From Candidatus Levyibacteriota bacterium (GTDB taxonomy: Bacteria; Patescibacteriota; Microgenomatia; Levybacterales; UBA12049), in contig DAIDHL010000004.1 in assembly GCA_027459745.1 (NCBI GenBank), positions 15,240 to 79,239 of the forward strand: DNA of 64,000 bases, written 5' to 3'. Shown here in pieces: positions 1 to 12,538 of the stretch. The translations under genes and the position numbers were made by a program. Positions within the stretch are counted from its first letter, which is position 1. Every line of letters begins with the position of its first letter. The notes below the pieces were generated by a model. The model had not been told where the DNA came from. It did no database searches and was given only the letters and a program-made list of their open reading frames with translations.

Positions 1-1
1 G

Positions 2-118
2 TATGGTTTACGTACTGGAATATTTGGTGGAGCAGGAAATTTAATTTTTAATCGCTTTACAGGACCAGGTAGAGTCGGTATACAATCAATGTATCTTTAT
101 CTTCCAACGGGTAACTAA
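2..118 (+). CDS. 3' end (C-terminal ~38 aa) of a gene that starts upstream of the window. It ends ...NLIFNRFTGPGRVGIQSMYLYLPTGN*. It may belong to the AIM24/DUF124-like family.
   Basis: Open frame 2 runs from the window edge to TAA at 116-118. The C-terminal GPG...Q motif resembles the family from memory, which is weak evidence. Confidence 0.25.
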   Translation, partial: YGLRTGIFGGAGNLIFNRFTGPGRVGIQSMYLYLPTGN

Positions 119-123
119 GCGCT

Positions 124-441
124 TTATTTAAGATTGTGAATATCCTCTCTTAGTTGTTCATAAATCTCGTGTGCTGCATGTAAAAAATGTTTCTCAGCAT
201 CTTGCATATGCTTTCGTAAAACTTCCCAAGCTTTTTCATGATCTTGATTAGCTATATGCTGTAAAAATACTTTTTTATCTTCACCTTTGATATTACTCAA
301 TGCCTGGTCCATCATGACGTTATGAATTTGCTTCTGGGCGATTTGTAATAATTCTTCTTGTTGCTCCTGGGTTAAATCCAAACCTGACAATTCAACTTTT
401 ATATGTTCAAGCGTAACTAAATGTGAATAAAAATGCTTCAT
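124..441 (-). CDS. hypothetical small helical protein (105 aa)
   Basis: ORF-track ORF with Q/E/K/H-rich helical composition and no recognisable motif. Confidence 0.4.
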   Translation of the reverse strand: MKHFYSHLVTLEHIKVELSGLDLTQEQQEELLQIAQKQIHNVMMDQALSNIKGEDKKVFLQHIANQDHEKAWEVLRKHMQDAEKHFLHAAHEIYEQLREDIHNLK

Positions 442-495
442 ATTGTATTTATATCAACTAAATATTATAAAAATGATTTAACTCATTTAGTATCA

Positions 496-1425
496 TTACT
501 TTACTTCAATCGGTCCTAAGGGAATATTTTCACCAGAGCCATTAATAAAAAAATATAAAACTGGCCCTTTTTCTGCACCATCTTGACGATCTAAGTAACT
601 CATAACTTCTGGCGAACCGCCTAATTGTTTACCAGTCCATGGAGATGGACCTGAATCGGCGATATCTGCCACCAATGCCTTACCATTTTGTGGATTAACC
701 ACCAACATTTTTCTATATTTGAAAAAGTTATTATAAACTATCACATGTTCATTATATCCTGGACTTAAAAATGTCGGTACAGCAATATACCATTTTTCTC
801 TTTGTACATCCAAGCTAGTCATACTTGCTGCAGAATCAGCAAAATATCCCCAGGCTCCTAATCCAGGTGCCATACCAGAGCCATAATATTTTTGCGCATC
901 AGCTTCAGATGTAAACATAGTAGACATAGAATCGCCTGGATAACGTGCTAAGTGCTGTTCTTCGCCTATATATCCATAATTTTGATTTAAGTGAATACCA
1001 TTAACATCAGCAACAACCGAAAAACCAAAGCGAGCTGATAATATTCCGGTAATGCGATCTTCTTGCTCAGGAGTCAAGGGAACAACAGATGAAGGTAATT
1101 TATTATACAAGTCATTAATCAAAAACATTCTTTTGTTCAGCATTCCAAATTGTTCATTTGAAGGGACTATGGGTGGAATGGTAGTCGGATTTTTCGTGGG
1201 TGCAACTTGAGCAGCGGGCGTTGCTATAGAGGTGGGCAAAAGATTAGGTGTAATGGATAACATCACAATGCTTGCCGCTGAAGCAGTAAAAGGAGCGGTA
1301 TTACGGGTTAGCCATTCCAAAGCATCTTTATGCTTTTGCCACAATCTTTGGTGCAATTTTTGCTCACGTTCACTCCACTTATTTTTAAGATGTTCATAGT
1401 GAGAAATATAGTTTTTCTGAGACAT
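496..1425 (-). CDS. hypothetical membrane-anchored or secreted protein. The C-terminal domain may be a DPBB-fold cell-wall module (RlpA/3D-like).
   Basis: It has an N-terminal hydrophobic segment and a Pro/Thr-rich linker. The C-terminal block ...YIAVPTFLSPGYNEHVIVYNNF...KALVADIADSGPSPW...GSPEVMSYL resembles RlpA/3D domains from memory. Confidence 0.4.
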   Translation of the reverse strand: MSQKNYISHYEHLKNKWSEREQKLHQRLWQKHKDALEWLTRNTAPFTASAASIVMLSITPNLLPTSIATPAAQVAPTKNPTTIPPIVPSNEQFGMLNKRMFLINDLYNKLPSSVVPLTPEQEDRITGILSARFGFSVVADVNGIHLNQNYGYIGEEQHLARYPGDSMSTMFTSEADAQKYYGSGMAPGLGAWGYFADSAASMTSLDVQREKWYIAVPTFLSPGYNEHVIVYNNFFKYRKMLVVNPQNGKALVADIADSGPSPWTGKQLGGSPEVMSYLDRQDGAEKGPVLYFFINGSGENIPLGPIEVK

Positions 1426-1506
1426 AAAGTTAAGGTGGTTTTTAATAATACCTGAGGACCTTCCCTTATTAACTTAGTTTGGCATGCTCTGGTGTAAGTG
1501 TCAAAT

Positions 1507-4041
1507 TTATAGAGTATATTTTCTTAAAAAAATATGCTTCATGAATTCAACTAAAATTAAATATGTCGAAACAAGGATAATTAAGATAAAGAAATAAAGG
1601 GGAGGAGGAGTAACCAATCCAAGCGTCCCTGCTAGAGGCGAAAATGGCAAGAGCAATGATACTAAGACTATGCCTACGCAAGTCCCCAGTAACCATTTAC
1701 TCGGTTTGCTTAAAAAGAATGGACTACGTGAAGTACGTATAACAAATACTACTAAAATTTCCGTAGCCATTGACTCAATAAACCAACCTGTCTGAAATAA
1801 AGCATTTTGCGCATGAAAGATATAGATCATTACTCCAAAAGTTAGAAAATCATAAACTGAACTGATCGGACCAAAAAATATCATGTAATTACGTATGAAA
1901 TTAATATTCCAGTGTCTCGGACGAATTAGAGATTCATGATCCACATTGTCGGTAGGAATACTTAATTGTGATAAATCATATAGACCATTGGTAAGTAGAA
2001 TTTGCACTGGAGTCATAGGCAAAAATGGTAAGAGAAAAGAAGCACCTGCGGCTGAGAACATATTACCAAAATTAGAACTTGTACCCATCAAGATGTATTT
2101 GATTGTATTATTAAATGTCCGTCTTCCCTCCATGATACCATCAGCAATGACATCCAAACTCTTACGTAACAATACAATAGCAGCAGCATCTTTCGCGACA
2201 TCTATTGCAGTATTAACGGATATCCCCACATCAGCACTGCGCAGGGCGGGGATATCGTTGATGCCATCCCCCATAAAACCAACTGTATGACCTATATCTC
2301 TTAGAGTTTGAATTATTTTTAATTTTTGTGTTGGACTAACTCGGGTAAAAAGATTGGCTTGTTCAACTTTTTTCCTTAAGTCTTCATCAGTTAGCTTATC
2401 CATTTGCGGACCTGTAAGGACTCCTGCAACATTCATACCAACTTCTTTACAAACTTTTTGTGCAATAATCTCATTGTCTCCTGTAATTACTTTAATAGAT
2501 ATGTTTAACTTATTTAACTTCATTAACGCTTCTTTGGCTGAGGTTTTAGGAATATCGAGAAAACTCAAATATCCTAAAAATCTTAAATCTTTAACATCAT
2601 CCCATGAATAATCTTCTTTTTTGTTTATCTCTTTTTCTGCAATGGCAACGATACGTAAACCATCTTGGTTTAATTTAGAAAACTTTTCCGCCAGTTCTTT
2701 TCTCTGTCTATCATCGACACACCAGTCTAAAATAGCTTGTGGTGCACCCTTTACTATTAAACTATATTTACCCTCTTTAGCAATAACACTAAACATTGCC
2801 TTACGCGTATAATCAAAAGATTCCTCATCAACTTTACTGACATTTGCTGTTAAATGAATATGATTCTTGATGGCATAATGCCATATGGAAACATCAATTG
2901 CATTACCTGCAACTTTATGATGAATTATGGCTGTATTACACCTTAGACCGGCAATAAGTACTTGAGGATTTTTATGACCTTCTGCATCGATATAATCTAC
3001 CACCTCGATATTACCTTCAGTTAGAGTCCCTGTTTTGTCAGTACATAAAACATCCATATTTCCCAAATTCTCAATCGCAATCAGCTGTTTGGCTACAACT
3101 TTTTTCTTAGCAAGTTTTCCTGCTCCATGCGACAAACTAACAGTAACAATTACAGGTAGTAATTCTGGTGTTAAGCCAACAGCAATTGCCAGGGAAAAAA
3201 TCAAAGAATCAAGCAATTTATGACCTAATAGTGCATTAATTAAAAAGATTGCAGTAGTTAAAATTAAAATAACTTTTACTAATAATTGTCCGAATTTAGT
3301 CAATCCTTTTTCAAAATCAGTTTCCGGTTTTACATATAATGCAGATTTAGCAATTTTGCCGAATTCCGTTTGTTTGGCAATGTTGATTACAACACCTCTG
3401 GCTGAACCGCTCTCAACTGATGTTCCCATAAAAGCAATGTTTGACATCTCAGTCAAATTATTAGACTTTAAGTCAACAGCATTAGCAATCTTAAATACCG
3501 TCTTTGACTCACCGGTCAATGGAGATTCATTAACTTCCATGTCCTTACTTTCAATAATTCGTAAATCAGCAGGAATAATCGAACCCTCTGATAAAATCAC
3601 AATATCTCCGACTGTTAATTGCGAAACAGGAATTTCTAAATGCTCATCGTTACGCATTACCACAGCTGTGGGAGATATTTTTTTTAATAGATTGTCAATG
3701 GTCCTTTCTGCCGCATATTCGTTCCACATACCTAAAAACACGCTAATGAAAATTAAAGCAAAGATATAATAAGAGCTAATTTGCTGGCCTAAAAAGAAAG
3801 AAATTAAGGTGGCAACAGCTAATACGATAATTAATGGATTATCTTTGAACTGTCTGAGAAATATAAGTAAGGGGTTTACGTTTCTTTTGTGTATAGTATT
3901 TAGTCCATATTCACGCTGTCTATTCAATGCTTCGGTATTAGATAAACCTCCCAGTCGTGTTTGCAAACCGGTTAGTGTATCTTCGAAACTTAACTTGCAG
4001 AAGTAACTTGCATCTTTAACTACCTTATTTTTTTCATCCAT
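1507..4041 (-). CDS. P-type cation-transporting ATPase (P2/P3-type, MgtA-like Mg2+ or Ca2+ ATPase)
   Basis: 844 aa with a Cation_ATPase_N-like N-terminus. It carries DKTGTLT (phosphorylation site), TGDN, GDGINDIPAL and a TM4 PELLP motif (compare MgtA PEMLP and SERCA PEGLP). Confidence 0.9.
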   Translation of the reverse strand: MDEKNKVVKDASYFCKLSFEDTLTGLQTRLGGLSNTEALNRQREYGLNTIHKRNVNPLLIFLRQFKDNPLIIVLAVATLISFFLGQQISSYYIFALIFISVFLGMWNEYAAERTIDNLLKKISPTAVVMRNDEHLEIPVSQLTVGDIVILSEGSIIPADLRIIESKDMEVNESPLTGESKTVFKIANAVDLKSNNLTEMSNIAFMGTSVESGSARGVVINIAKQTEFGKIAKSALYVKPETDFEKGLTKFGQLLVKVILILTTAIFLINALLGHKLLDSLIFSLAIAVGLTPELLPVIVTVSLSHGAGKLAKKKVVAKQLIAIENLGNMDVLCTDKTGTLTEGNIEVVDYIDAEGHKNPQVLIAGLRCNTAIIHHKVAGNAIDVSIWHYAIKNHIHLTANVSKVDEESFDYTRKAMFSVIAKEGKYSLIVKGAPQAILDWCVDDRQRKELAEKFSKLNQDGLRIVAIAEKEINKKEDYSWDDVKDLRFLGYLSFLDIPKTSAKEALMKLNKLNISIKVITGDNEIIAQKVCKEVGMNVAGVLTGPQMDKLTDEDLRKKVEQANLFTRVSPTQKLKIIQTLRDIGHTVGFMGDGINDIPALRSADVGISVNTAIDVAKDAAAIVLLRKSLDVIADGIMEGRRTFNNTIKYILMGTSSNFGNMFSAAGASFLLPFLPMTPVQILLTNGLYDLSQLSIPTDNVDHESLIRPRHWNINFIRNYMIFFGPISSVYDFLTFGVMIYIFHAQNALFQTGWFIESMATEILVVFVIRTSRSPFFLSKPSKWLLGTCVGIVLVSLLLPFSPLAGTLGLVTPPPLYFFILIILVSTYLILVEFMKHIFLRKYTL

Positions 4042-4097
4042 ATACTCATCGTAGCTACTATTAATTTTAAGATCAATGACCTAAATATAAATTAAAA

Positions 4098-5342
4098 CTA
4101 TGAAGGTAAAAATTGAGAGACTAACAATGCAATAGAGCTAATTGCTATCAAAGCAAAAGTAATAATAACTATAATATTAATTATTCTACCATTGCGATAT
4201 CCATTTAATAATTTCTTATCATTAGCAAGTATATATACAAAGACAAGTACGGGTAATAACAAAACTGCATTTATAGCTTGCGTGAAGAATAATATCTGTA
4301 GAAGTGGTAAAAATGGAGCTATAACTAATATTGCGCCAATAAACAAGCTAAAAGAGAACAATCCATAAAACTCTGGCGCTTCGGTAAACGAGAAATTAAG
4401 TCCTGACTCAAAACCAAATGCTTCAGTAATTACATATGACGTAGCAACCGGAACTAAGGCAGCGCCGAATAAAGATGCATTTAACAAACCAAAAGCAAAC
4501 AAAATTCCCGCAAACTGACCAGCTAAAGGCTGTAATGCAATAGCTGCATCTTTAGCATCACTTATGGGAATATTATGAGCGAATAGTGTTACAGCACAAG
4601 CCACAATAATAAAGAAAGAAATGAAATTAGTTATAAAAGAACCTAAAAAGACATCCGCTCTTTCCGGATTCAGATCCTCTTTAGTCAATTTTTTGTCTAC
4701 TACATAATCTTGAATAAAAAATTGACCCCAAGGTGTAATTGTTGTACCTATAACTGCAATCATTGTAATAAGATAATTTTTACTTAAACTAAAATGTGGT
4801 GTAACTAGACTTTCCACAGCAACTCCCCAGTGTGGATGAGACATAAAAGCAGAAATAATGTAAACTAAATAGAAAGCAGAAGCAACTAAAAATATTTTCT
4901 CTAATTTTTTAAAACTTCCTTTAGTAACCAGAAAGAAAACTAGCAGAACAGCAAACGGGATTGAAACGTATTTATTAATATTGAATACTTCCAATGCAGA
5001 AGCGATTCCGGCAAATTCCGCTGCAATTGTTCCAATATTAGCGATGAGTAAAACTACCATAATAAATGTAGTCCAACGAATTCCAAACTTTTCACGAATC
5101 AAAGAAGCTAAACCCTTACCTGTAGCCAATCCCATTCTTGCTCCTATTTCCTGAGTAACAGCCAAACTGAAAGTAGTTATAAATAAAACCCACAACAATG
5201 AAAGCCCAAAGCTAGCACCTGCAACAGAATAAGTCGCAATACCACCCGCATCATTGTCTACTGAACCAGAAATAATACCTGGTCCTAATATGGCTAAAAT
5301 AGGCAAAATTCTTCCAAATCTTGTTTTAAATAGGTTCTTCAT
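4098..5342 (-). CDS. Nramp (SLC11) family transporter with a non-canonical metal site, possibly an NRMT-like Mg2+ transporter
   Basis: Clear similarity to MntH in TM1-TM3 (LGPG...AGASFG..LLWV...G.ATGK.LA..IR). DPGN is replaced by DAGG (SVDNDAGGIATYS), and TM6 ATVMPH is replaced by TTITPW, so the Met and His are lost. I set the start at the second ATG (MKNLFK..., 5342), which follows GAGGAG. The ORF track starts it at 5363. Confidence 0.8.
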   Translation of the reverse strand: MKNLFKTRFGRILPILAILGPGIISGSVDNDAGGIATYSVAGASFGLSLLWVLFITTFSLAVTQEIGARMGLATGKGLASLIREKFGIRWTTFIMVVLLIANIGTIAAEFAGIASALEVFNINKYVSIPFAVLLVFFLVTKGSFKKLEKIFLVASAFYLVYIISAFMSHPHWGVAVESLVTPHFSLSKNYLITMIAVIGTTITPWGQFFIQDYVVDKKLTKEDLNPERADVFLGSFITNFISFFIIVACAVTLFAHNIPISDAKDAAIALQPLAGQFAGILFAFGLLNASLFGAALVPVATSYVITEAFGFESGLNFSFTEAPEFYGLFSFSLFIGAILVIAPFLPLLQILFFTQAINAVLLLPVLVFVYILANDKKLLNGYRNGRIINIIVIITFALIAISSIALLVSQFLPS

Positions 5343-6513
5343 ATTCTTCTCCTCTCTGTACATGTTCTAGAACTGTATCAACTGAAATAGCACCAATTAC
5401 TTTATCATTTTCATCTACCACAGGCAGTAGACGAAGATTATACTCGGAGAATGTTCTTAATATTTCTTTAAAAGGGGCATCTGAGGTAACAGATTGTGCA
5501 GAAATTGCCACATCTTTTAGACTTGAATCTGGTTCTAGATTAAATAAATTTCTTACTGCAATTATTCCTTTTAAAGTATCTTCATTATCCACAACAACTA
5601 CGACCTCAGGACGTCTACGCATTAAGCGTAAAAATTCTATGGTTTCTGCAACTGTCGTATCTTCTTTCTCACGATAAAAATTAACATCCATCAGACCTCC
5701 AGCAACATTATCAGGATATACAGATAACCGTCTGACGTTTTGAATCTTATCCTGTTCAAGATTTTGAAAAATCTCCTTGCTGGTAAAAGGATTTAATTCT
5801 TTAAGAATATCTACAATATCTGCCACTGACATTTTTTGGACAATCTTCTTTAATGAATCTTTTGGTAAAGACTCCAATATTGATTGTTGTGTCTCTGGAT
5901 CTGCTTCTCCCAATGCTGCTGCCGCCATTCGTGGATCAAGTAATTCGACCACACCCAATCTTTCTTTTGTTCCTGCATCTTCTAAAATGTCAGCAATTTC
6001 CGCTGGATGAAATGCATTTAAGCTATTCTGACTTAATTTCAATCTAACCTGTCCCATTTGATAATCAAAAGCCTCAATCAATGTCCAAGGAATAGAAATA
6101 GTGCGCAAATTAAAGACGACTCCCAATCCGAGTCGTCTTAATATTCCAGAAAATCCGATATCGATTCCCACAATTTTATATACACCATTTTTTTTAAGGA
6201 TTACATCATTTACCCGCACTAGACGACGACCAGTAACATCGATCACTTGTTTATCCAACAAATCCTCTGCTAAATAAAAATCTTTATCATTATATGGAGA
6301 TAAAGTAATATCTTCAGTTTCAATGAAAAATCTTTTCTCGGTAAATTTTACTTGGTCAGTAGGTAAAGTGAACTTCTTACCTTCTTTGCGAATTAAAATA
6401 GTGGAAACATTAGCAGTAGATAAATCTTGAACCACACCAAAATCAATGACTTTAGCATACTCTCGTTGTCCTACGTAGACTGGTTTGTTTAATAATTGGC
6501 TCAGATAAACCAT
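5326..6513 (-). CDS. MgtE-like cytoplasmic regulatory protein (PRC-barrel, MgtE_N, CBS pair) with no transmembrane domain
   Basis: MgtE_N signature LNAFHPAEIADILEDAG..ERLGVVELLDPRMAAAALGEADPETQQSILESLP...MSVADIVDILKEL. Two CBS motifs (VGGLMDVNFYRE..., PVVDENDKVIGAISVDTVLEHV). The N-terminal region is PRC-barrel-like (KPVYVGQREYAKVIDFGV...). AAGGAGG lies 5 nt before the ATG of MVYLSQ (6513). The track start at 6549 lies upstream of that SD. Confidence 0.75.
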   Translation of the reverse strand: MVYLSQLLNKPVYVGQREYAKVIDFGVVQDLSTANVSTILIRKEGKKFTLPTDQVKFTEKRFFIETEDITLSPYNDKDFYLAEDLLDKQVIDVTGRRLVRVNDVILKKNGVYKIVGIDIGFSGILRRLGLGVVFNLRTISIPWTLIEAFDYQMGQVRLKLSQNSLNAFHPAEIADILEDAGTKERLGVVELLDPRMAAAALGEADPETQQSILESLPKDSLKKIVQKMSVADIVDILKELNPFTSKEIFQNLEQDKIQNVRRLSVYPDNVAGGLMDVNFYREKEDTTVAETIEFLRLMRRRPEVVVVVDNEDTLKGIIAVRNLFNLEPDSSLKDVAISAQSVTSDAPFKEILRTFSEYNLRLLPVVDENDKVIGAISVDTVLEHVQRGEEYEEPI

Positions 6514-6653
6514 ATCGCCCTCCTTTCGGACCAGAGCCAAAATATGCATGAGACTTTTAAACCAAGAAAAAGCACCAGTTTCAGCAACCTTTTAGGTGAA
6601 CTTAAAATGCTCGCCTGCCAAAATCACTCATGTTTATTTTCAACTCTAGTTGA

Positions 6654-6683
6654 ATTATCCGCCTCGATTTGCAGGTTTGTCAA
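6654..6683 (-). promoter_or_regulatory. sigma70-like promoter for the sensor/Nramp/ATPase operon
   Basis: On the minus strand, TTGACA is followed by an 18-nt spacer and GATAAT, about 135 nt upstream of the 6513 start. Confidence 0.4.
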
Positions 6684-6699
6684 TAAGAAGAATAGATTT

Positions 6700-7767
6700 T
6701 TAAATAGCGGGTGTTATTATTTTACCTGTTGGTTGCTCAAAAACTTTGCCATTATCAACAATTTTTCGTCCGTGCAGATAGACAGACATTATTTTCCCTT
6801 TAATTTGCATACCTGCAAATGGTGTCCACCCGCATTTACTGACTATTTTGTCGTTACTTAAAACATATTTCTGAGAAGTGTCAATTTCCACATATGTATC
6901 CAACTGTTCAGGTATAGAAAAAATTCTTCTTGGATTTGTATTTGTAACAGTTATCAATGTTTCCAAACTTATTCTCTTCTCAGCCACAGCCGTCAATAAT
7001 AACGGCAATGATGTTTCAACGCCTGGCACTCCAAAAGGAGAATTTTCGGAATTTTCTTTTTCTTCAATAGTATGGGGTGCATGATCTGTAGCGACAATAT
7101 CAATAAGACCTTCTCGCAATCCCTCCCACAAAGCATCCTGATCCATTTGTGTTTTCAGGACAGGTTTCATAACTGCATAGGCGCCAATCCGTTTTATATC
7201 CTCATCTGTCAAAAATAGATTATTAGGTGTAACTTCGCATGTTATATTCATTCCACTTTTCTTTGCTTTAACTACAGACATTAATTCTTGTTTTGAAGTT
7301 AAATGTGCAACATGAACTTTTGTACGATATTTCCCTGCTAATTCTATCGCTCTGTCTAATGTCTCATCTTCTGCATGAACAATTAATGTTTTTCCGTTAG
7401 GAATATGAGCAAAAATCTTTTCTGCTTCTTCAGGCGTAACTTTTAAATTACCTGTTGTATGATTCATATACAGCTTGTAGCCAAACACCTGATTTTTAAC
7501 TTCTTCAAAAAAAGGCAGAGCCTCCATGGTAGCGGCAAAATGAAACCCTAAATCGTTATAGATACGATTTTCTGCAAGCTTAAATTTTTCTTTCAAGGCC
7601 AGAGGATTTGAAGTAGGGATTGGATTATTTGGCATATCCAGAACAGTCGTTACCCCACCTGAAATAGCCGCTCTGGTGCCAGTTGCCATATCCTCTTTCT
7701 GAGCAGCACCCGGCTCTCTTAAATGAGTATGGACATCAATTACACCTGGTATGGTAAGTAGTTTCAT
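6700..7767 (-). CDS. pyrC: dihydroorotase
   Basis: N-terminal GVIDVHTHLREPG metal-binding motif of cyclic amidohydrolases. Operon context with pyrD, pyrE and pyrF. Confidence 0.8.
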   Translation of the reverse strand: MKLLTIPGVIDVHTHLREPGAAQKEDMATGTRAAISGGVTTVLDMPNNPIPTSNPLALKEKFKLAENRIYNDLGFHFAATMEALPFFEEVKNQVFGYKLYMNHTTGNLKVTPEEAEKIFAHIPNGKTLIVHAEDETLDRAIELAGKYRTKVHVAHLTSKQELMSVVKAKKSGMNITCEVTPNNLFLTDEDIKRIGAYAVMKPVLKTQMDQDALWEGLREGLIDIVATDHAPHTIEEKENSENSPFGVPGVETSLPLLLTAVAEKRISLETLITVTNTNPRRIFSIPEQLDTYVEIDTSQKYVLSNDKIVSKCGWTPFAGMQIKGKIMSVYLHGRKIVDNGKVFEQPTGKIITPAI

Positions 7768-8831
7768 AGAGTCTTTTTAATTTCCTGCGCCAAGAAAGGA
7801 TCCCACATTGCACCGGTGGCCGACATCACACTATCTGCTCCCGCTTCTATATAATCAAAATAATCCTTAGGAGTCATTACACCCCCTATACCTTCAATAT
7901 TAAATTTAAATTTTTTTCGCTCACGAATTTTTTTAAGCCTGCTAACTGTATCAATACCTGCCCATTTAATTCCTGCCCCACAAACTCCAGACCTAGCTCT
8001 ACCCTTACCAGGCAGTGCTTGCTCACCCTTATCATCTACAATTGTTGCTTGCAAAGTATTAATCCCAGCAATTGCATTGGCATATTCATTAGCAATTTCT
8101 GAAATTTTCTCCAATTGTTTATCATCTGAATAATATCCAACTTTTAATGTCAAAGGTAAATTACCAATTACTGAACGAATACCTTTGGAAATTTTTTCTG
8201 TAACTTCCAAATTGTAACAAACCAAGCCCTCATTACCAATATTAGGACATGACAAATTAGTCTCAAGTACTTTAGCCCCAGTCTCAGCAGCCAATTTGGC
8301 AGCCAAAATATAATCATTAATAAATTCTTGTTGGGTTTGATTAGGTTTTACAGTACCCATGAAACTCACAACTAGAACTTGACCTTTACCAGCATAGCTT
8401 ATAGCCTTTTTCACATCCTCCTGCCATACTTCAACATTTTTAGATGGTACACCAAATGAATTAGTAATTGACAATGGCTGCGTATAGTTAATATCTGCTT
8501 GGAGCGGATTTTGTAGGACTTCTAATGAAAGATCACCTGATGGATGAATCGCCAAAACATTGGGGAAAGGATGACAAGGAAAGAAATTTGTTCTAACTGT
8601 TTTATAGACAACTAAATCAAAACCTTTCTCGAAAGCAGCTTTGACAAAATTACTATTCAAGACTGGCCCTGCGGGAATTCCAAAAGGCAAATAGACTGGC
8701 TGCCCTAAGTAAGTTTTACTAGGCTCTCCACTTTGCTGATAAACTTTTCCATCCGCAAATGCACCAAATGGTCCTTCGTCATAATTTTCTTCATACGACT
8801 TTTTCGGATCATAGAAAGGATTTTGTAGCAT
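7764..8831 (-). CDS. pyrD: dihydroorotate dehydrogenase, class 1-like (Cys active-site base), with an N-terminal extension of about 60 aa
   Basis: NLSCPN motif and a TIM-barrel flavoprotein pattern (GIGGV...). There is a 4-nt ATGA overlap with pyrC. Confidence 0.8.
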   Translation of the reverse strand: MLQNPFYDPKKSYEENYDEGPFGAFADGKVYQQSGEPSKTYLGQPVYLPFGIPAGPVLNSNFVKAAFEKGFDLVVYKTVRTNFFPCHPFPNVLAIHPSGDLSLEVLQNPLQADINYTQPLSITNSFGVPSKNVEVWQEDVKKAISYAGKGQVLVVSFMGTVKPNQTQQEFINDYILAAKLAAETGAKVLETNLSCPNIGNEGLVCYNLEVTEKISKGIRSVIGNLPLTLKVGYYSDDKQLEKISEIANEYANAIAGINTLQATIVDDKGEQALPGKGRARSGVCGAGIKWAGIDTVSRLKKIRERKKFKFNIEGIGGVMTPKDYFDYIEAGADSVMSATGAMWDPFLAQEIKKTL

Positions 8832-8835
8832 AAAA

Positions 8836-9558
8836 TTATTGTCTTAAATAAGTTACAACTTTTTTATATTTTTCTTCTGTTATCTGTTTACTTGAACGAA
8901 GATATTCCAGAATTGAATAAATATCCATTGCAGCATATGTTTTATAGCCCATATCTAGCATCTTTTGCACTCCTCCTTGACTCCTATCTACTAAAACGAC
9001 CAAAGCTACAACTTCATAACCAAGTTTTTTAGCTTCTTCAAGTGCTTCGACTTTAGAATTACCATGCGCAATCACATCATCAATAATTACTAATTTTTTA
9101 CCTTGAACTTTTTCTGCATCCGGCTTAGCCACTATTGCCCTCGTACTATCACCTTCAACTTTATCAAAAATATCTACAAAAGGAATATCGGTCAAGATTG
9201 AGTATTCTTCTGCAAATGCAATCGCAGTCTTAGGGATAGCAGTACAATAATCTACTGTAGTATCTATTTTTACTTGTGATAACACTTCACCTATTTTCCC
9301 TATCAAATTTGGGGGTAATTTGCGTAAGTTAATATAAATTTGTGAGAGTGCAGCATCTGGTCTTTCTTCATGAATCTTCAAAGCAAATTCCTCTTCATTA
9401 ACAGGAAAATCTATCGGACTGGTATCCCGTTCAATGGTATAAAAAGAAAACTTTCCTTCAGGGTCTTGTTTGCGACGACGGACCTTTGCGTATGTTTTGG
9501 TGGAAATAAATAAATCTACTAATTCTTTTTGTGATTGTGTTAGCTGTTTGATATCCAT
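8836..9558 (-). CDS. pyrE: orotate phosphoribosyltransferase
   Basis: PRTase PRPP-binding loop KKLVIIDDVIAHGNSKVEA. It lies between pyrF and pyrD. Confidence 0.75.
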   Translation of the reverse strand: MDIKQLTQSQKELVDLFISTKTYAKVRRRKQDPEGKFSFYTIERDTSPIDFPVNEEEFALKIHEERPDAALSQIYINLRKLPPNLIGKIGEVLSQVKIDTTVDYCTAIPKTAIAFAEEYSILTDIPFVDIFDKVEGDSTRAIVAKPDAEKVQGKKLVIIDDVIAHGNSKVEALEEAKKLGYEVVALVVLVDRSQGGVQKMLDMGYKTYAAMDIYSILEYLRSSKQITEEKYKKVVTYLRQ

Positions 9559-10404
9559 TTATAAATAAGATATTATTTGCTGATATAACTTTTGGGCTTC
9601 CTTCTTAGCTGCTTGTGCATAGTCTATATCATTTGAGGCAAAAAGTATACTCCTACCGGCATTGATGATCATACCCTGACTTTTACTGTCTTTACCAGCT
9701 GTCACTGTGGCTTGCAAGTCTCCTCCTTGTGCACCAATACCTGGAATAAGAAAGGGAATATCACCTACCAAAGCGCGCACTTTGGCTAATTCTTCTGGAT
9801 AAGTAGCTCCTACAACGACACCGCAATTGCCATAAGTATTCCATTTCTGACTAATGTTTAAGGCTACCTTTTGATAAAGAGGCATTTTTGTACCATTATC
9901 TTCGATAATTAAATTTTGAAATTCGGACGAACCTTTATTGGAAGTTTTTACTAACAAAATAATGCCTTTATCTTTCCTTTCCAGAAACGGCTGCACTGCT
10001 TCCTGTCCCAGATACGAATGAAGAGTAATGGCGTCGGCATTTAAAATATCAAAGGCTGCGGTAGCATAGCCTTGATTGGTATTGCCAATATCTCCACGTT
10101 TGGCGTCCAAAATAACTGGCATTGCTTCATAATTTTCATGAATGTACGCAATTGTCTTTTGTAAAACTGCAAAACCTTCAGAGCCATACATTTCATAAAA
10201 AGCACTATTGGGTTTGAAAGCACAGACATATTCTGCTGTTGCATCGATAATAGCCTTATTAAATTGGAAAATCTGCTCTGCTTTATTTTTATAATTTTTA
10301 CGGATAACTTCAGGCAACTTATCAATTTGAGGATCAAGTCCCACGCATAAAAACTTATTTTCATTCCAATGAGTCTTTAATTTCTCTGTAAAAATCAGTT
10401 CCAT
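9559..10404 (-). CDS. pyrF: orotidine-5'-phosphate decarboxylase (long type-2 form)
   Basis: LDAKRGDIGNT active-site motif. It is the first gene of the pyrFEDC cluster. Confidence 0.8.
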   Translation of the reverse strand: MELIFTEKLKTHWNENKFLCVGLDPQIDKLPEVIRKNYKNKAEQIFQFNKAIIDATAEYVCAFKPNSAFYEMYGSEGFAVLQKTIAYIHENYEAMPVILDAKRGDIGNTNQGYATAAFDILNADAITLHSYLGQEAVQPFLERKDKGIILLVKTSNKGSSEFQNLIIEDNGTKMPLYQKVALNISQKWNTYGNCGVVVGATYPEELAKVRALVGDIPFLIPGIGAQGGDLQATVTAGKDSKSQGMIINAGRSILFASNDIDYAQAAKKEAQKLYQQIISYL

Positions 10405-10473
10405 CCGTTATCAGAAATATAATTAATTGCGGACTAATTGTCAATTGATATTCCGGTAATATTAATTTAATTT

Positions 10474-10482
10474 TGCTACAAT
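10474..10482 (+). promoter_or_regulatory. extended -10 element TGCTACAAT for the LCP gene
   Basis: TGn plus TACAAT lies 21 nt upstream of ATG 10503 with no SD in between. Confidence 0.4.
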
Positions 10483-10502
10483 ATTTACCTAACAAATATA
10501 TT

Positions 10503-11537
10503 ATGCCTCAGACTGAAAAAAAATCACTTCCTTTGATAGTTAGAATTATCATCTGTGTACTAGCTGCGGTTATTTTCTATATTTTTGGCTACAGTTTATA
10601 TATTTTAACCCGTGTACAACAATTTGTGGCCACCAGTACTACCCAAAAAATCGCAGTTACACCTCCAGTCAACTTACCCAATCTATCAAATCAGACAAAC
10701 ATTTTACTCTTAGGCAGTGATAATGATCAAAAATTTACCGGCAATCCACTTACACAAACTATGATGATTGTGCACATTGATTATACTAAGAAAGAAATTG
10801 ATATGTTCTCAATACCTAGGGATTTATGGGTAAAAATGCCAAACCTTAACACCTACGGAAAGATTGATCAGGCTGCAGAATATAACGGCATACCCTCTGC
10901 AATTGCGGTCGTTGAACAAACTTTTGGTATCCCTATAAATCATTATGCCTGGGTGGGATTGTATGGATTTATCAAAAGTATTGACGCTATAGGTGGTGTT
11001 AATATCGACGCCGTACATCCAGTACTTGATAATGCCTACCCTACCGATATCGGCAGTAATAATCCTTATGGAGTTCAGAGATTAGATATTCAAGCAGGTA
11101 TGCAACACATGGACGGACAAGAAGCCTTGCAGTATGTTAGATCCCGTCATGAAGATTTAATTGGAGATTTTGGCCGTACTCAACGGCAAAGACAGCTTTT
11201 ATTAACTTTAAAACAAACCTTATTACAATCTAAATCCTCTCTTTTGGATGTCCCACAAATTTTTGACAGTCTCAAGGGACAAATAAAAACCGACATCGAT
11301 CCACTTATTGCCATGCAACTCGCAACATTTTACATCACCAATAAAAGCACTATACAACAAAAACAATACACACTTACTCCCGGAGAATATTCACAAGTCG
11401 GTAATTCTACCGATGGACAAAGTATAGTTATAGCTGATCCTAACACATCATCTCAATTAGTAGGTAAAATATTCGGAGCCAAGGCACAGGAAATTACTCT
11501 ACAAAGTCTGTTGAATGAGAAAGGTATACAACCATGA
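10503..11537 (+). CDS. LytR-CpsA-Psr (LCP) family cell-envelope phosphotransferase
   Basis: N-terminal TM, then LLLGSDNDQ...MMIVHID...SIPRDLWV...GGVNIDAVHPV...DGQEALQYVRSRH..GDFGRTQRQRQLL. The track ORF starts at TTG 10473 and includes the TGCTACAAT promoter. ATG 10503 is the more likely start. Confidence 0.85.
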   Translation: MPQTEKKSLPLIVRIIICVLAAVIFYIFGYSLYILTRVQQFVATSTTQKIAVTPPVNLPNLSNQTNILLLGSDNDQKFTGNPLTQTMMIVHIDYTKKEIDMFSIPRDLWVKMPNLNTYGKIDQAAEYNGIPSAIAVVEQTFGIPINHYAWVGLYGFIKSIDAIGGVNIDAVHPVLDNAYPTDIGSNNPYGVQRLDIQAGMQHMDGQEALQYVRSRHEDLIGDFGRTQRQRQLLLTLKQTLLQSKSSLLDVPQIFDSLKGQIKTDIDPLIAMQLATFYITNKSTIQQKQYTLTPGEYSQVGNSTDGQSIVIADPNTSSQLVGKIFGAKAQEITLQSLLNEKGIQP

Positions 11538-12538
11538 TAAAAAAACGTACATTAATATTATTAGCGATAGTTTTTTTATTAGTAGGATATTTCCAGGCAG
11601 CAAATCATAGTAAAAAAAATACAGTGCAGAATACAGTTCAATTCGCCAATACAGAAATAGAACCTAATGACAAAATTACTCTTTCTAATTTGGGAGATAT
11701 ATATGAATTGACTAGTAAAAATATCACTCAGATTACCACCAATACTAGCTTAATTGAACCAATCACGATGGATAAAAATATTGCGGCTGTCTATAAACAA
11801 AATAATTATTCTTCGCTAATCGAATATGACTCATCAGGCAAAATGATAAAAACATTGTTTGATGGAAATGCAAATAAAATCGATAATATGTTATGGGTTA
11901 GTGATCCTGCAATTGATTCCACAAAAACTAAAATAGCCTATGTTTCCGATCAAAACAGAATCAGCACTAATATACCAGATAACGCGTTGTTTATTTTAGA
12001 TCTAAATAAAAATAAAACAACTTTAGTGGCTAGTCCAGATCATTATTCAGGAGGCATTGCTCATCCGGTATGGGACCCCATCGACCAAACAATATTACTC
12101 TATGACTATTATCAATACACCTCTTCCACACTTGAACCTTATTCAACAATCATGGAATATGATTTTCAAACAGATAATTCTTTTCCTCTAACTACTGACA
12201 AACAAAATGTCTTACAGGAAGCATTGTCCCCAGACGGTAAAAAGATATTATACCTTCAGCGTAATAGTAACGGCCTGGATGTTTCTTTATATTATGCAGA
12301 TTTTTCTGCAGATAATGGAATATCAAATACAGTAAAACTTACTAGTGGTGACTATGCATATCCTGAATTTTCTAATACACTGGACTATATTTATTATTTA
12401 TCTGCTGATGCTAATCAAGGATATAACCTTTTCAAGGCAAAAATTGTGAATAATAAATTAACTGCAATTACACCGATTACAACAGGAGATAGTTTGCAGG
12501 GTAACTCCTCATATTGGATTGATGAAATTACGCAATAG
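11534..12538 (+). CDS. hypothetical secreted protein with TolB/PD40-like beta-propeller repeats
   Basis: Signal or TM N-terminus. Repeated ...KIAYVSDQN... and ...LSPDGKKILYLQRNSNG... blocks. ATGA overlap with the LCP gene. Confidence 0.5.
   Translation: MIKKRTLILLAIVFLLVGYFQAANHSKKNTVQNTVQFANTEIEPNDKITLSNLGDIYELTSKNITQITTNTSLIEPITMDKNIAAVYKQNNYSSLIEYDSSGKMIKTLFDGNANKIDNMLWVSDPAIDSTKTKIAYVSDQNRISTNIPDNALFILDLNKNKTTLVASPDHYSGGIAHPVWDPIDQTILLYDYYQYTSSTLEPYSTIMEYDFQTDNSFPLTTDKQNVLQEALSPDGKKILYLQRNSNGLDVSLYYADFSADNGISNTVKLTSGDYAYPEFSNTLDYIYYLSADANQGYNLFKAKIVNNKLTAITPITTGDSLQGNSSYWIDEITQ

Follow-up and report, generated by a model that had tools for sequence, protein, structure and literature searches.

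We analysed a stretch of 64,000 nucleotides (nt) of DNA from a Candidatus Levyibacteriota bacterium (assembly GCA_027459745.1, contig DAIDHL010000004.1, positions 15,240 to 79,239; the whole stretch is called the window below). Three consecutive open reading frames (ORFs) occupy 1507..6549 in the ORF listing of the window, all of them on the minus strand, and all window features described below lie on that strand. The first encodes a soluble MgtE-like protein, referred to here as the partner or sensor (5326..6513, 395 amino acids (aa) from ATG 6513), which was recognised by its Pfam PRC, MgtE_N and CBS domains. The second encodes an NRMT-type permease related to Nramp transporters (4098..5342, 414 aa from ATG 5342), identified by PF01566 and by its match to EleNRMT. 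The third is mgtA, the gene for a magnesium-translocating P-type ATPase of 844 aa (1507..4041). The original prediction, made from the sequence alone, had joined these genes into a composite Mg2+ module of three parts. We found that the first two genes are a Levyibacteriota version of the NrmT/NRMT gene pair that was already described in 2014, and that mgtA is a lineage-specific neighbour, not a conserved member of the pair.

The partner is a homologue of the MgtE cytoplasmic domain without the pore. Its ORF spans 5326..6549, and an alternative ATG at 6549, which is the start used in the public copy of the protein (P0001), would give 407 aa. We favoured ATG 6513 because it is preceded by AGGAGG and is consistent with the family alignment. 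The MgtE_N domain expected in this protein was recovered by profile search (PF03448, E = 4.4e-22), together with CBS (8.1e-13) and PRC (8.3e-10). The Pfam scan gave no match to the MgtE membrane domain (PF01769). Against TIGR00400 (mgtE) the protein reached 109.6 bits, with a cut-off of 232.75, and it covered only profile positions 24-254 of 450. From these two results the partner is not an MgtE channel. Sequence alignment of the partner covered native residues 22-253 of Thermus MgtE. An AlphaFold2 model built from 25 homologues (predicted local distance difference test score (pLDDT) 86) was superimposed on the MgtE cytosolic domain (2yvy) with a TM-score of 0.82 and a root-mean-square deviation of 2.3 A over 230 columns, both CBS motifs included.

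Two PRC-barrel-like domains precede the MgtE-like half. The N-terminal 66 residues (6316..6513) are all-beta in the model, and four of the five family members gave PRC matches there that fall short of the threshold (E = 0.0015 to 0.11); they are likely, but still tentatively, an additional PRC barrel, and they form the least conserved domain of the partner. The second PRC barrel (residues 78-160, 6034..6282; 39 bits in Pfam with a cut-off of 21.2) is the most conserved domain, with 18 of its 83 columns at least 90% conserved across three phyla. It carries the motif LLDKQVIDxxGxRxVRVND, plus W143, and the near-invariant positions are L86, D87, Q89, D92, G95, R100-D103, D118, R126, R127, G129 and W143. 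The helical MgtE_N domain follows (residues 161-269, 5707..6033) and aligns with Thermus MgtE from native residue 22 on. The next part is a CBS pair (residues 270-386, 5356..5706), matched by Pfam CBS, which superimposes on the CBS pair of MgtE. The protein closes with an acidic C-terminal tail, RGEEYEEPI (residues 387-395, 5329..5355; EEEExxDxI in the consensus of the family). It lies where the plug helix of MgtE starts, and was aligned to the plug-helix residues E255, E258 and D259 of Thermus MgtE, in a region where model confidence is low. The MgtE-like half as a whole is strongly acidic, with a net charge of -18.

[quoted passage not shown] It differs in that it ends at the first turns of the plug helix, has no membrane domain and carries two added PRC barrels at its N-terminus.

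The permease is an NRMT-type Nramp relative with an altered metal site; NRMTs are the Nramp-related magnesium transporters, an outgroup in SLC11 terms. It matched Pfam Nramp (PF01566) with E = 4e-89 and 299.5 bits. Its closest solved relative by far is EleNRMT (7qia), which aligned end to end with E = 6e-104, whereas DraNramp gave 2.5e-18, MntH and Mn2+ Nramp structures gave about 1e-18, and ScaDMT-type chains gave 5e-12. The metal-site motif of transmembrane helix 1 (TM1) is D31-A32-G33-G34 (5241..5252), where canonical Nramp proteins have DPGN; VDNDAGGI in the window corresponds to AGNDAGGI in EleNRMT, with the Asp kept and Gly replacing Asn. The motif of TM6 is T200-T201-I202-T203-P204-W205 (4728..4745), where canonical Nramp proteins have A-x-x-M-P-H. 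EleNRMT reads TTIAPW at this site, the former Met position being Thr in the window and Ala in EleNRMT. Both TM6b histidines are lost, the first to Trp and the second to Ile (Trp and Asn in EleNRMT).

Among the NRMTs that are linked to sensor genes, Thr is the commonest state at the former Met position. These proteins share DAGG (DAPG in Chloroflexota) and mostly TTITPW. The replacements of DPGN by DAGG and of A-x-x-M-P-H by TTITPW, which had been read from the single sequence, were borne out by alignment with EleNRMT and 70 linked NRMTs, and the aligned metal site of the window permease is altered, both Met and His being absent. EleNRMT transports Mg2+ and Mn2+ with no H+ coupling, and its residues D55, G58 and T224 are needed for Mg2+ (PMC8806188). 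In our alignment the window permease carries matching residues for D55, G58, T224, Q379 and E133. As these metal-site and pathway residues are conserved, uncoupled transport of Mg2+ and Mn2+ would be expected of the window permease, and Mg2+ is its presumed substrate.

The conservation of the pair was assessed in 80 genome loci from Patescibacteria, Chloroflexota and deltaproteobacteria, which were retrieved by a sensor profile. Five loci that end at a contig edge just past the sensor gene were excluded, leaving 75 evaluable loci. An NRMT homologue was carried by 72 of the 80 sensor loci, and the NRMT gene lay directly downstream of the sensor gene in 71 of the 75 evaluable ones, which confirms the predicted pairing of sensor and permease. 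In one other evaluable locus the NRMT gene was found 3.2 kb away, behind inserted ABC-transporter genes. The closest locus (L001), from a Candidatus Levyibacteriota metagenome-assembled genome, encodes proteins at 89% identity and shares the flanking genes. Patescibacteria are the source of most sensor homologues.

In the window the permease start, ATG 5342, lies inside the sensor gene, where it is preceded by a GAGGAG ribosome-binding site and overlaps the 3' end of the partner gene by 17 nt, as had been proposed. In nearly all Patescibacteria loci the overlap between NRMT start and sensor gene is 14 or 17 nt. Such an overlap is a hallmark of translational coupling, and on this sequence criterion the pair is conserved and translationally coupled.

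A wider search of 1.84 billion representatives returned 854 clusters of sensor homologues at E <= 1e-30. No natural sensor-Nramp fusion was present among the 80 loci or the best 150 of the 854 representative clusters. Long proteins among these best 150 were considered as candidate fusions and rejected, since they were actually joined to the MgtE membrane domain.

Some loci showed variations on the common arrangement. In a Chloroflexota locus (L060, 8275-10808) the sensor gene is followed by a tandem pair of NRMT copies, and in another (L056, 8336-12742) genes for an ATP-binding cassette (ABC) permease and an ABC ATPase are inserted between the sensor and NRMT genes. In the 86%-identical relative (L081, 9172-9750) the NRMT was called at 192 aa, about 230 nt from the contig end, which may reflect truncation, a frameshift or an assembly artefact. 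A distant second Nramp paralogue (29-33% identity; DDDPSG in TM1 and GTTISPY in TM6) was seen near the pair in Levyibacteriota-like loci (L010, 10601-11731; L013, 2834-4201; L018, 5729-6862; L027, 3160-4290). In L013 it adjoins a type III P-type ATPase that scored below both the H+ (IIIA) and the Mg2+ (IIIB) cut-offs.

Upstream of the partner gene we located a sigma-70-like promoter candidate, TTGACA-18 nt-GATAAT (6654..6683), which agrees with the consensus at 11 of 12 positions and was the top match within 1300..6900. The scan total was no better than chance, with 16 sites found and 21.6 expected. The two closest relatives, L001 and L081, carry both hexamers unchanged. The description of three co-directional genes behind a promoter candidate of this kind held for the minus-strand trio, with the candidate read from 6683 to 6654. 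A 5' leader of about 135 nt (6514..6653) lies between the candidate and the start of the partner gene. No Rfam family, M-box or other riboswitch, was matched at E <= 1 within window positions 1..12000, and a riboswitch was likewise not found by Rfam in 10 related loci. We also considered a novel structured leader, which was rejected because the fold z-score was only -2.0 and nhmmer and blastn retrieved the leader from the two closest relatives only. A leader peptide was rejected as well; the 9-codon ORF MSDFGRRAF is found in the leader, and its frame is not kept in L001 or L081.

Directly upstream of the sensor gene and on the same strand (6700-10404) there are genes for dihydroorotase, dihydroorotate dehydrogenase (DHODH), orotate phosphoribosyltransferase (OPRT) and orotidine monophosphate (OMP) decarboxylase, assigned by sequence. 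Three deltaproteobacterial loci (L063, L064 and L080, at about 5000-6600) have, upstream of the sensor gene, a divergently oriented pyr operon that includes a PyrR binding site. The proximity of pyrimidine genes to the sensor may be a coincidence.

The partnership of sensor and permease had been thought undescribed. This proved wrong, as it was already reported by Shin et al. 2014 (PMC4072509; PLoS Genet 10:e1004429), who found that most NrmT genes follow a gene for a homologue of the MgtE cytoplasmic domain (context in their Fig. S5). They proposed cytoplasmic feedback regulation for the MgtE-like homologue, with chaperone activity as an alternative. The NrmT operons of that study (the Ca_c0685 operon of C. 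acetobutylicum and Acp2976/Acp2977 of A. capsulatum) have the identical order of MgtE-like soluble protein and then permease, a permease with the same altered metal site, and the same proposed regulatory role. The window differs from them in that there is no M-box, the permease start overlaps the upstream gene, mgtA follows, and the host belongs to Patescibacteria; the M-box itself is present upstream of many, not all, NrmT operons (PMC4072509). The paper is also silent on PRC barrels, which are the conserved core of the partner here.

EleNRMT of Eggerthella lenta (7QIA, 7QIC, 7QJI, 7QJJ; eLife 11:e74589) shares with the window permease the D-A-G-G motif, Thr at the T224 position and the replacement of the first TM6b His by Trp. 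It was studied alone, and Ramanadane et al. 2022 discuss no partner protein. As far as the searchable literature goes, later papers on NRMTs and on SLC11 evolution have not revisited the MgtE-like partner gene, and nothing was found there on PRC-plus-MgtE proteins or in the way of later papers on the partner protein.

How might the two proteins work together? We consider it rather likely that an NRMT permease is combined here with a detached cytoplasmic regulatory partner made of two PRC barrels, an MgtE N domain and CBS domains, with MgtA being separate. The permease, with its Nramp fold, would take up hydrated Mg2+ (and Mn2+), probably without proton coupling, in the manner of EleNRMT. The partner would be translated in step with it via the 17-nt overlap, would dock on its inner face, probably via the second PRC barrel, and would limit uptake once the cell is replete. 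The downstream MgtA would act as a separate, ordinary high-affinity Mg2+ importer that is adjacent by chance of lineage.

Two general considerations favour such an arrangement. CorA and MgtE achieve feedback through built-in cytoplasmic sensor domains. An uncoupled, potential-driven Mg2+ carrier would overload the cell if it had no feedback, so the best reading of the coupled partner is that of a sensor which acts in trans. In the photosynthetic reaction centre, the PRC barrel of the H subunit is packed onto the membrane subunits on their cytoplasmic side. This packing, together with the second PRC barrel being the best conserved domain of the partner, makes that barrel a candidate docking surface. 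Both the physical contact between partner and permease and the nature of what the partner senses are things that we infer.

Several observations weigh against a regulatory partner that responds to Mg2+. Three of the 75 evaluable sensor loci (L050, L059 and L079) have no NRMT gene nearby. As no Mg2+ riboswitch is present, the DNA offers nothing that ties expression of the genes to Mg2+. Co-expression of Acp2976 with Acp2977 gave no better rescue, in the one pair that was tested, and the NrmT proteins of C. acetobutylicum and A. capsulatum transport without a partner (PMC4072509). In the same study A. capsulatum Acp2977, which has an MgtE-like neighbour and is without an M-box, seemed to be mainly a Mn2+ carrier. 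EleNRMT also functions alone in liposomes (PMC8806188). The orphan sensors themselves (L050, 6629-7984; L079, 6656-8020; L059, 288-1694) are proteins of 451-468 aa, with a GAF-SpoIIE phosphatase and a tyrosyl-tRNA synthetase among the products of neighbouring genes.

The metal and nucleotide sites of the partner count on the same side. In Thermus MgtE the cytosolic sites are formed by D91/D247 (Mg4), D226/D250 (Mg5), D95 (Mg6) and E59 (Mg7) (PMC5882242). Only one of these six ligands, D95 (D235 in the window protein), is kept in the window protein and its Patescibacteria relatives; at the E59, D91, D226, D247 and D250 positions the window protein has A, A, N, T and E. Leu takes the place of the ATP-stacking F227 throughout, and the ATP-contact residue N203 is likewise not conserved. 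The window protein and the Patescibacteria relatives do retain the neighbouring residues E232 and D379, and the free sensors of Chloroflexota retain D91, D95, D247 and D250. The original prediction had taken the first protein for exactly the Mg2+-sensing portion of MgtE. This stood for the MgtE_N and CBS domains and for the missing transmembrane region, but the PRC barrels are foreign to canonical MgtE and five of the six ligands are gone. With most ligands lost, Mg2+ sensing by the partner rests on domain homology and not on conserved ligands. Cytosolic Mg2+ sites are reported to vary among true MgtE proteins too (PMC10200709), so the ligand loss weakens Mg2+ sensing but does not exclude it. 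Judged from its domains, Mg2+ sensing by the partner is plausible.

One alternative is that the partner does not gate the permease at all. It could serve as a chaperone or buffer for metal, or act elsewhere (on the ribosome, on RNA or on an enzyme) as a CBS/PRC signalling protein, and be co-expressed with NRMT only through a shared metal regulon. The partner was dispensable and had no measurable effect on rescue in the single tested pair, a chaperone was suggested by Shin et al. themselves, the canonical MgtE Mg2+ ligands are mostly gone in the window lineage, and orphan sensor genes exist. PRC barrels are also said to be known from proteins of RNA metabolism such as RimM, a view attributed to Anantharaman and Aravind in 2002. 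We nevertheless regard a non-gating role as unlikely, because the adjacency is near-universal in three phyla and the overlapping starts are conserved, a sign that the two proteins are made in matching quantities, and because membrane-anchored relatives with the same head adjoin NRMT genes. A chaperone role would also leave unexplained why the conserved core is the second PRC barrel and not the acidic domains.

It could also be that the permease of the window lineage imports mainly Mn2+, or another divalent metal, and that the partner senses that metal or something else. Such a specificity would agree with the behaviour of Acp2977, which has an MgtE-like neighbour, is without an M-box and acted mainly as a Mn2+ transporter, and with EleNRMT carrying Mn2+ besides Mg2+. 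At the former Met position the window permease has Thr where EleNRMT has Ala, and an M-box was found neither in the window nor in the 10 related loci. Set against this, the residues that EleNRMT uses for Mg2+ (T224, G58 and D55) are conserved and the soft-metal ligand Met is absent, and we therefore think a permease mainly for Mn2+ or another divalent metal improbable.

The product of the third gene is a true MgtA-type pump, as had been predicted from its PELLP motif. It scored 774.3 bits against TIGR01524, where the cut-off is 610.75, and its best solved relative is E. coli MgtA (8uy7, E = 3e-185, residues 26-842). The catalytic LCTDKTGTLT and the TM4 segment GLTPELLPVIV are present in the translation, and GLTPELLP was aligned to GLTPEMLP of E. 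coli MgtA. With the type IIIB pumps of E. coli and Salmonella (8UY7) it thus shares a full-length alignment and the DKTGT and PExLP motifs, whereas its N-terminus is shorter and TM4 has PELLP, not PEMLP. The spacer that separates it from the NRMT gene is 56 nt long and AT-rich (4042..4097); no terminator-like site was found in it, and there is a weak promoter-like match (9 of 12 positions) at 4091..4064. We found no mgtL-type leader or Mg2+ riboswitch for mgtA: Rfam gave no match within 1..12000, and the gene is preceded by only this 56-nt spacer. Two co-directional ORFs of 309 and 105 aa lie downstream of mgtA (496-1425 and 124-441); they are kept in L001 and matched no Pfam family.

An intact mgtA gene was found after the NRMT gene in none of the 80 related loci. 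Seventy-nine have no mgtA at all in this place, and L001 has a remnant only. In L001 a 530-nt gap after the NRMT gene holds two stop-interrupted mgtA fragments (9500-9870), one covering residues 53-107 (44% identity) and the other residues 792-844 (70% identity), while sensor and NRMT are intact. The fragments imply that the common ancestor of both genomes had mgtA and that it later decayed in L001, so that a sister lineage has recently lost the Mg2+ pump. Unrelated genes surround the three closest mgtA orthologues (72-73% identity), and one of them shares its assembly with a sensor-NRMT pair that is on a different contig. Recent horizontal transfer of mgtA was considered and rejected, since the nearest homologues (60-73% identity) come from Levyibacteriota and other Patescibacteria; an MgtA at this level of identity is common in Patescibacteria and is therefore native to the group.

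A single composite Mg2+ module made up of sensor, NRMT and MgtA, with the sensor coordinating both a low-affinity carrier and a high-affinity pump, is highly improbable, for while the genes are co-directional with a spacer of 56 nt and no predicted terminator between NRMT and mgtA, and the arrangement is older than the split from the L001 lineage, no related locus has an intact mgtA beside the pair, the L001 copy is reduced to two short stop-bearing fragments next to an intact sensor and NRMT, and the closest orthologues sit in unrelated neighbourhoods. The three-part module of the original prediction was accordingly abandoned. The locus also indicates that the reduced genomes of Patescibacteria keep two separate routes of Mg2+ uptake, one of which (mgtA) can be lost.

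Returning to the regulatory partner, its possible origin was suggested by longer relatives. Among the best 150 of the 854 clusters there are proteins of about 600 aa in which a PRC-PRC-MgtE_N-CBS head is joined to the MgtE membrane domain, namely P0137 (L084), P0159 (L085), P0231 (L086/L087), P0245 (L088), P0214 and P0236. They have the same four-domain head as the window partner, which is without the membrane domain, and P0137 exceeds the MgtE equivalog cut-off. These forms retain nearly all cytosolic Mg2+ ligands as well as the LLDKQ...RVND signature of the second PRC barrel. In their pores the residues N329, N332 and D432 are replaced: D432 is A in P0137, S in P0159 and G in P0245, and the GGNTGNQ pore motif has become GGEVVAQ in P0137. 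An NRMT gene follows directly after two of the four that were examined for neighbours, P0137 and P0231, and not after P0159 and P0245. The searchable literature yielded no account of MgtE proteins that bear PRC barrels. The head of these proteins probably regulates the pore in cis.

These relatives suggest a route in which a PRC-bearing MgtE came to stand beside an NRMT gene, the pore degenerated until it served only as an anchor, and loss of that anchor then left a soluble partner. On this basis we advance a more specific proposal, which we hold tentatively, as possible rather than probable. The partner would be a detachable gating subunit derived from a PRC-bearing MgtE, docking via its second PRC barrel on the cytoplasmic side of an uncoupled LeuT-fold carrier and closing it upon a cytosolic signal. 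In Patescibacteria the canonical Mg2+ sites of MgtE may have ceased to read this signal.

What the MgtE-like gene beside most NRMT genes does has been a standing question since 2014, and the single structural and functional study of an NRMT was made without the partner. On its own the window locus adds little, but the comparative data around it give testable handles: the invariant residues of the second PRC barrel, the overlapping start, the membrane-anchored relatives with an altered pore, and the ligand loss in Patescibacteria. Three of our observations go beyond the searchable literature, namely the conservation of the second PRC barrel, the loss of ligands in Patescibacteria, and the pore-altered relatives of about 600 aa that in part precede NRMT genes. 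Regulation as such was already proposed in 2014; the new elements, if the proposal is true, would be docking mediated by a PRC barrel and the evolutionary route that led to it. The regulatory domain of a channel would then have been handed over, in trans, to an unrelated transporter fold.

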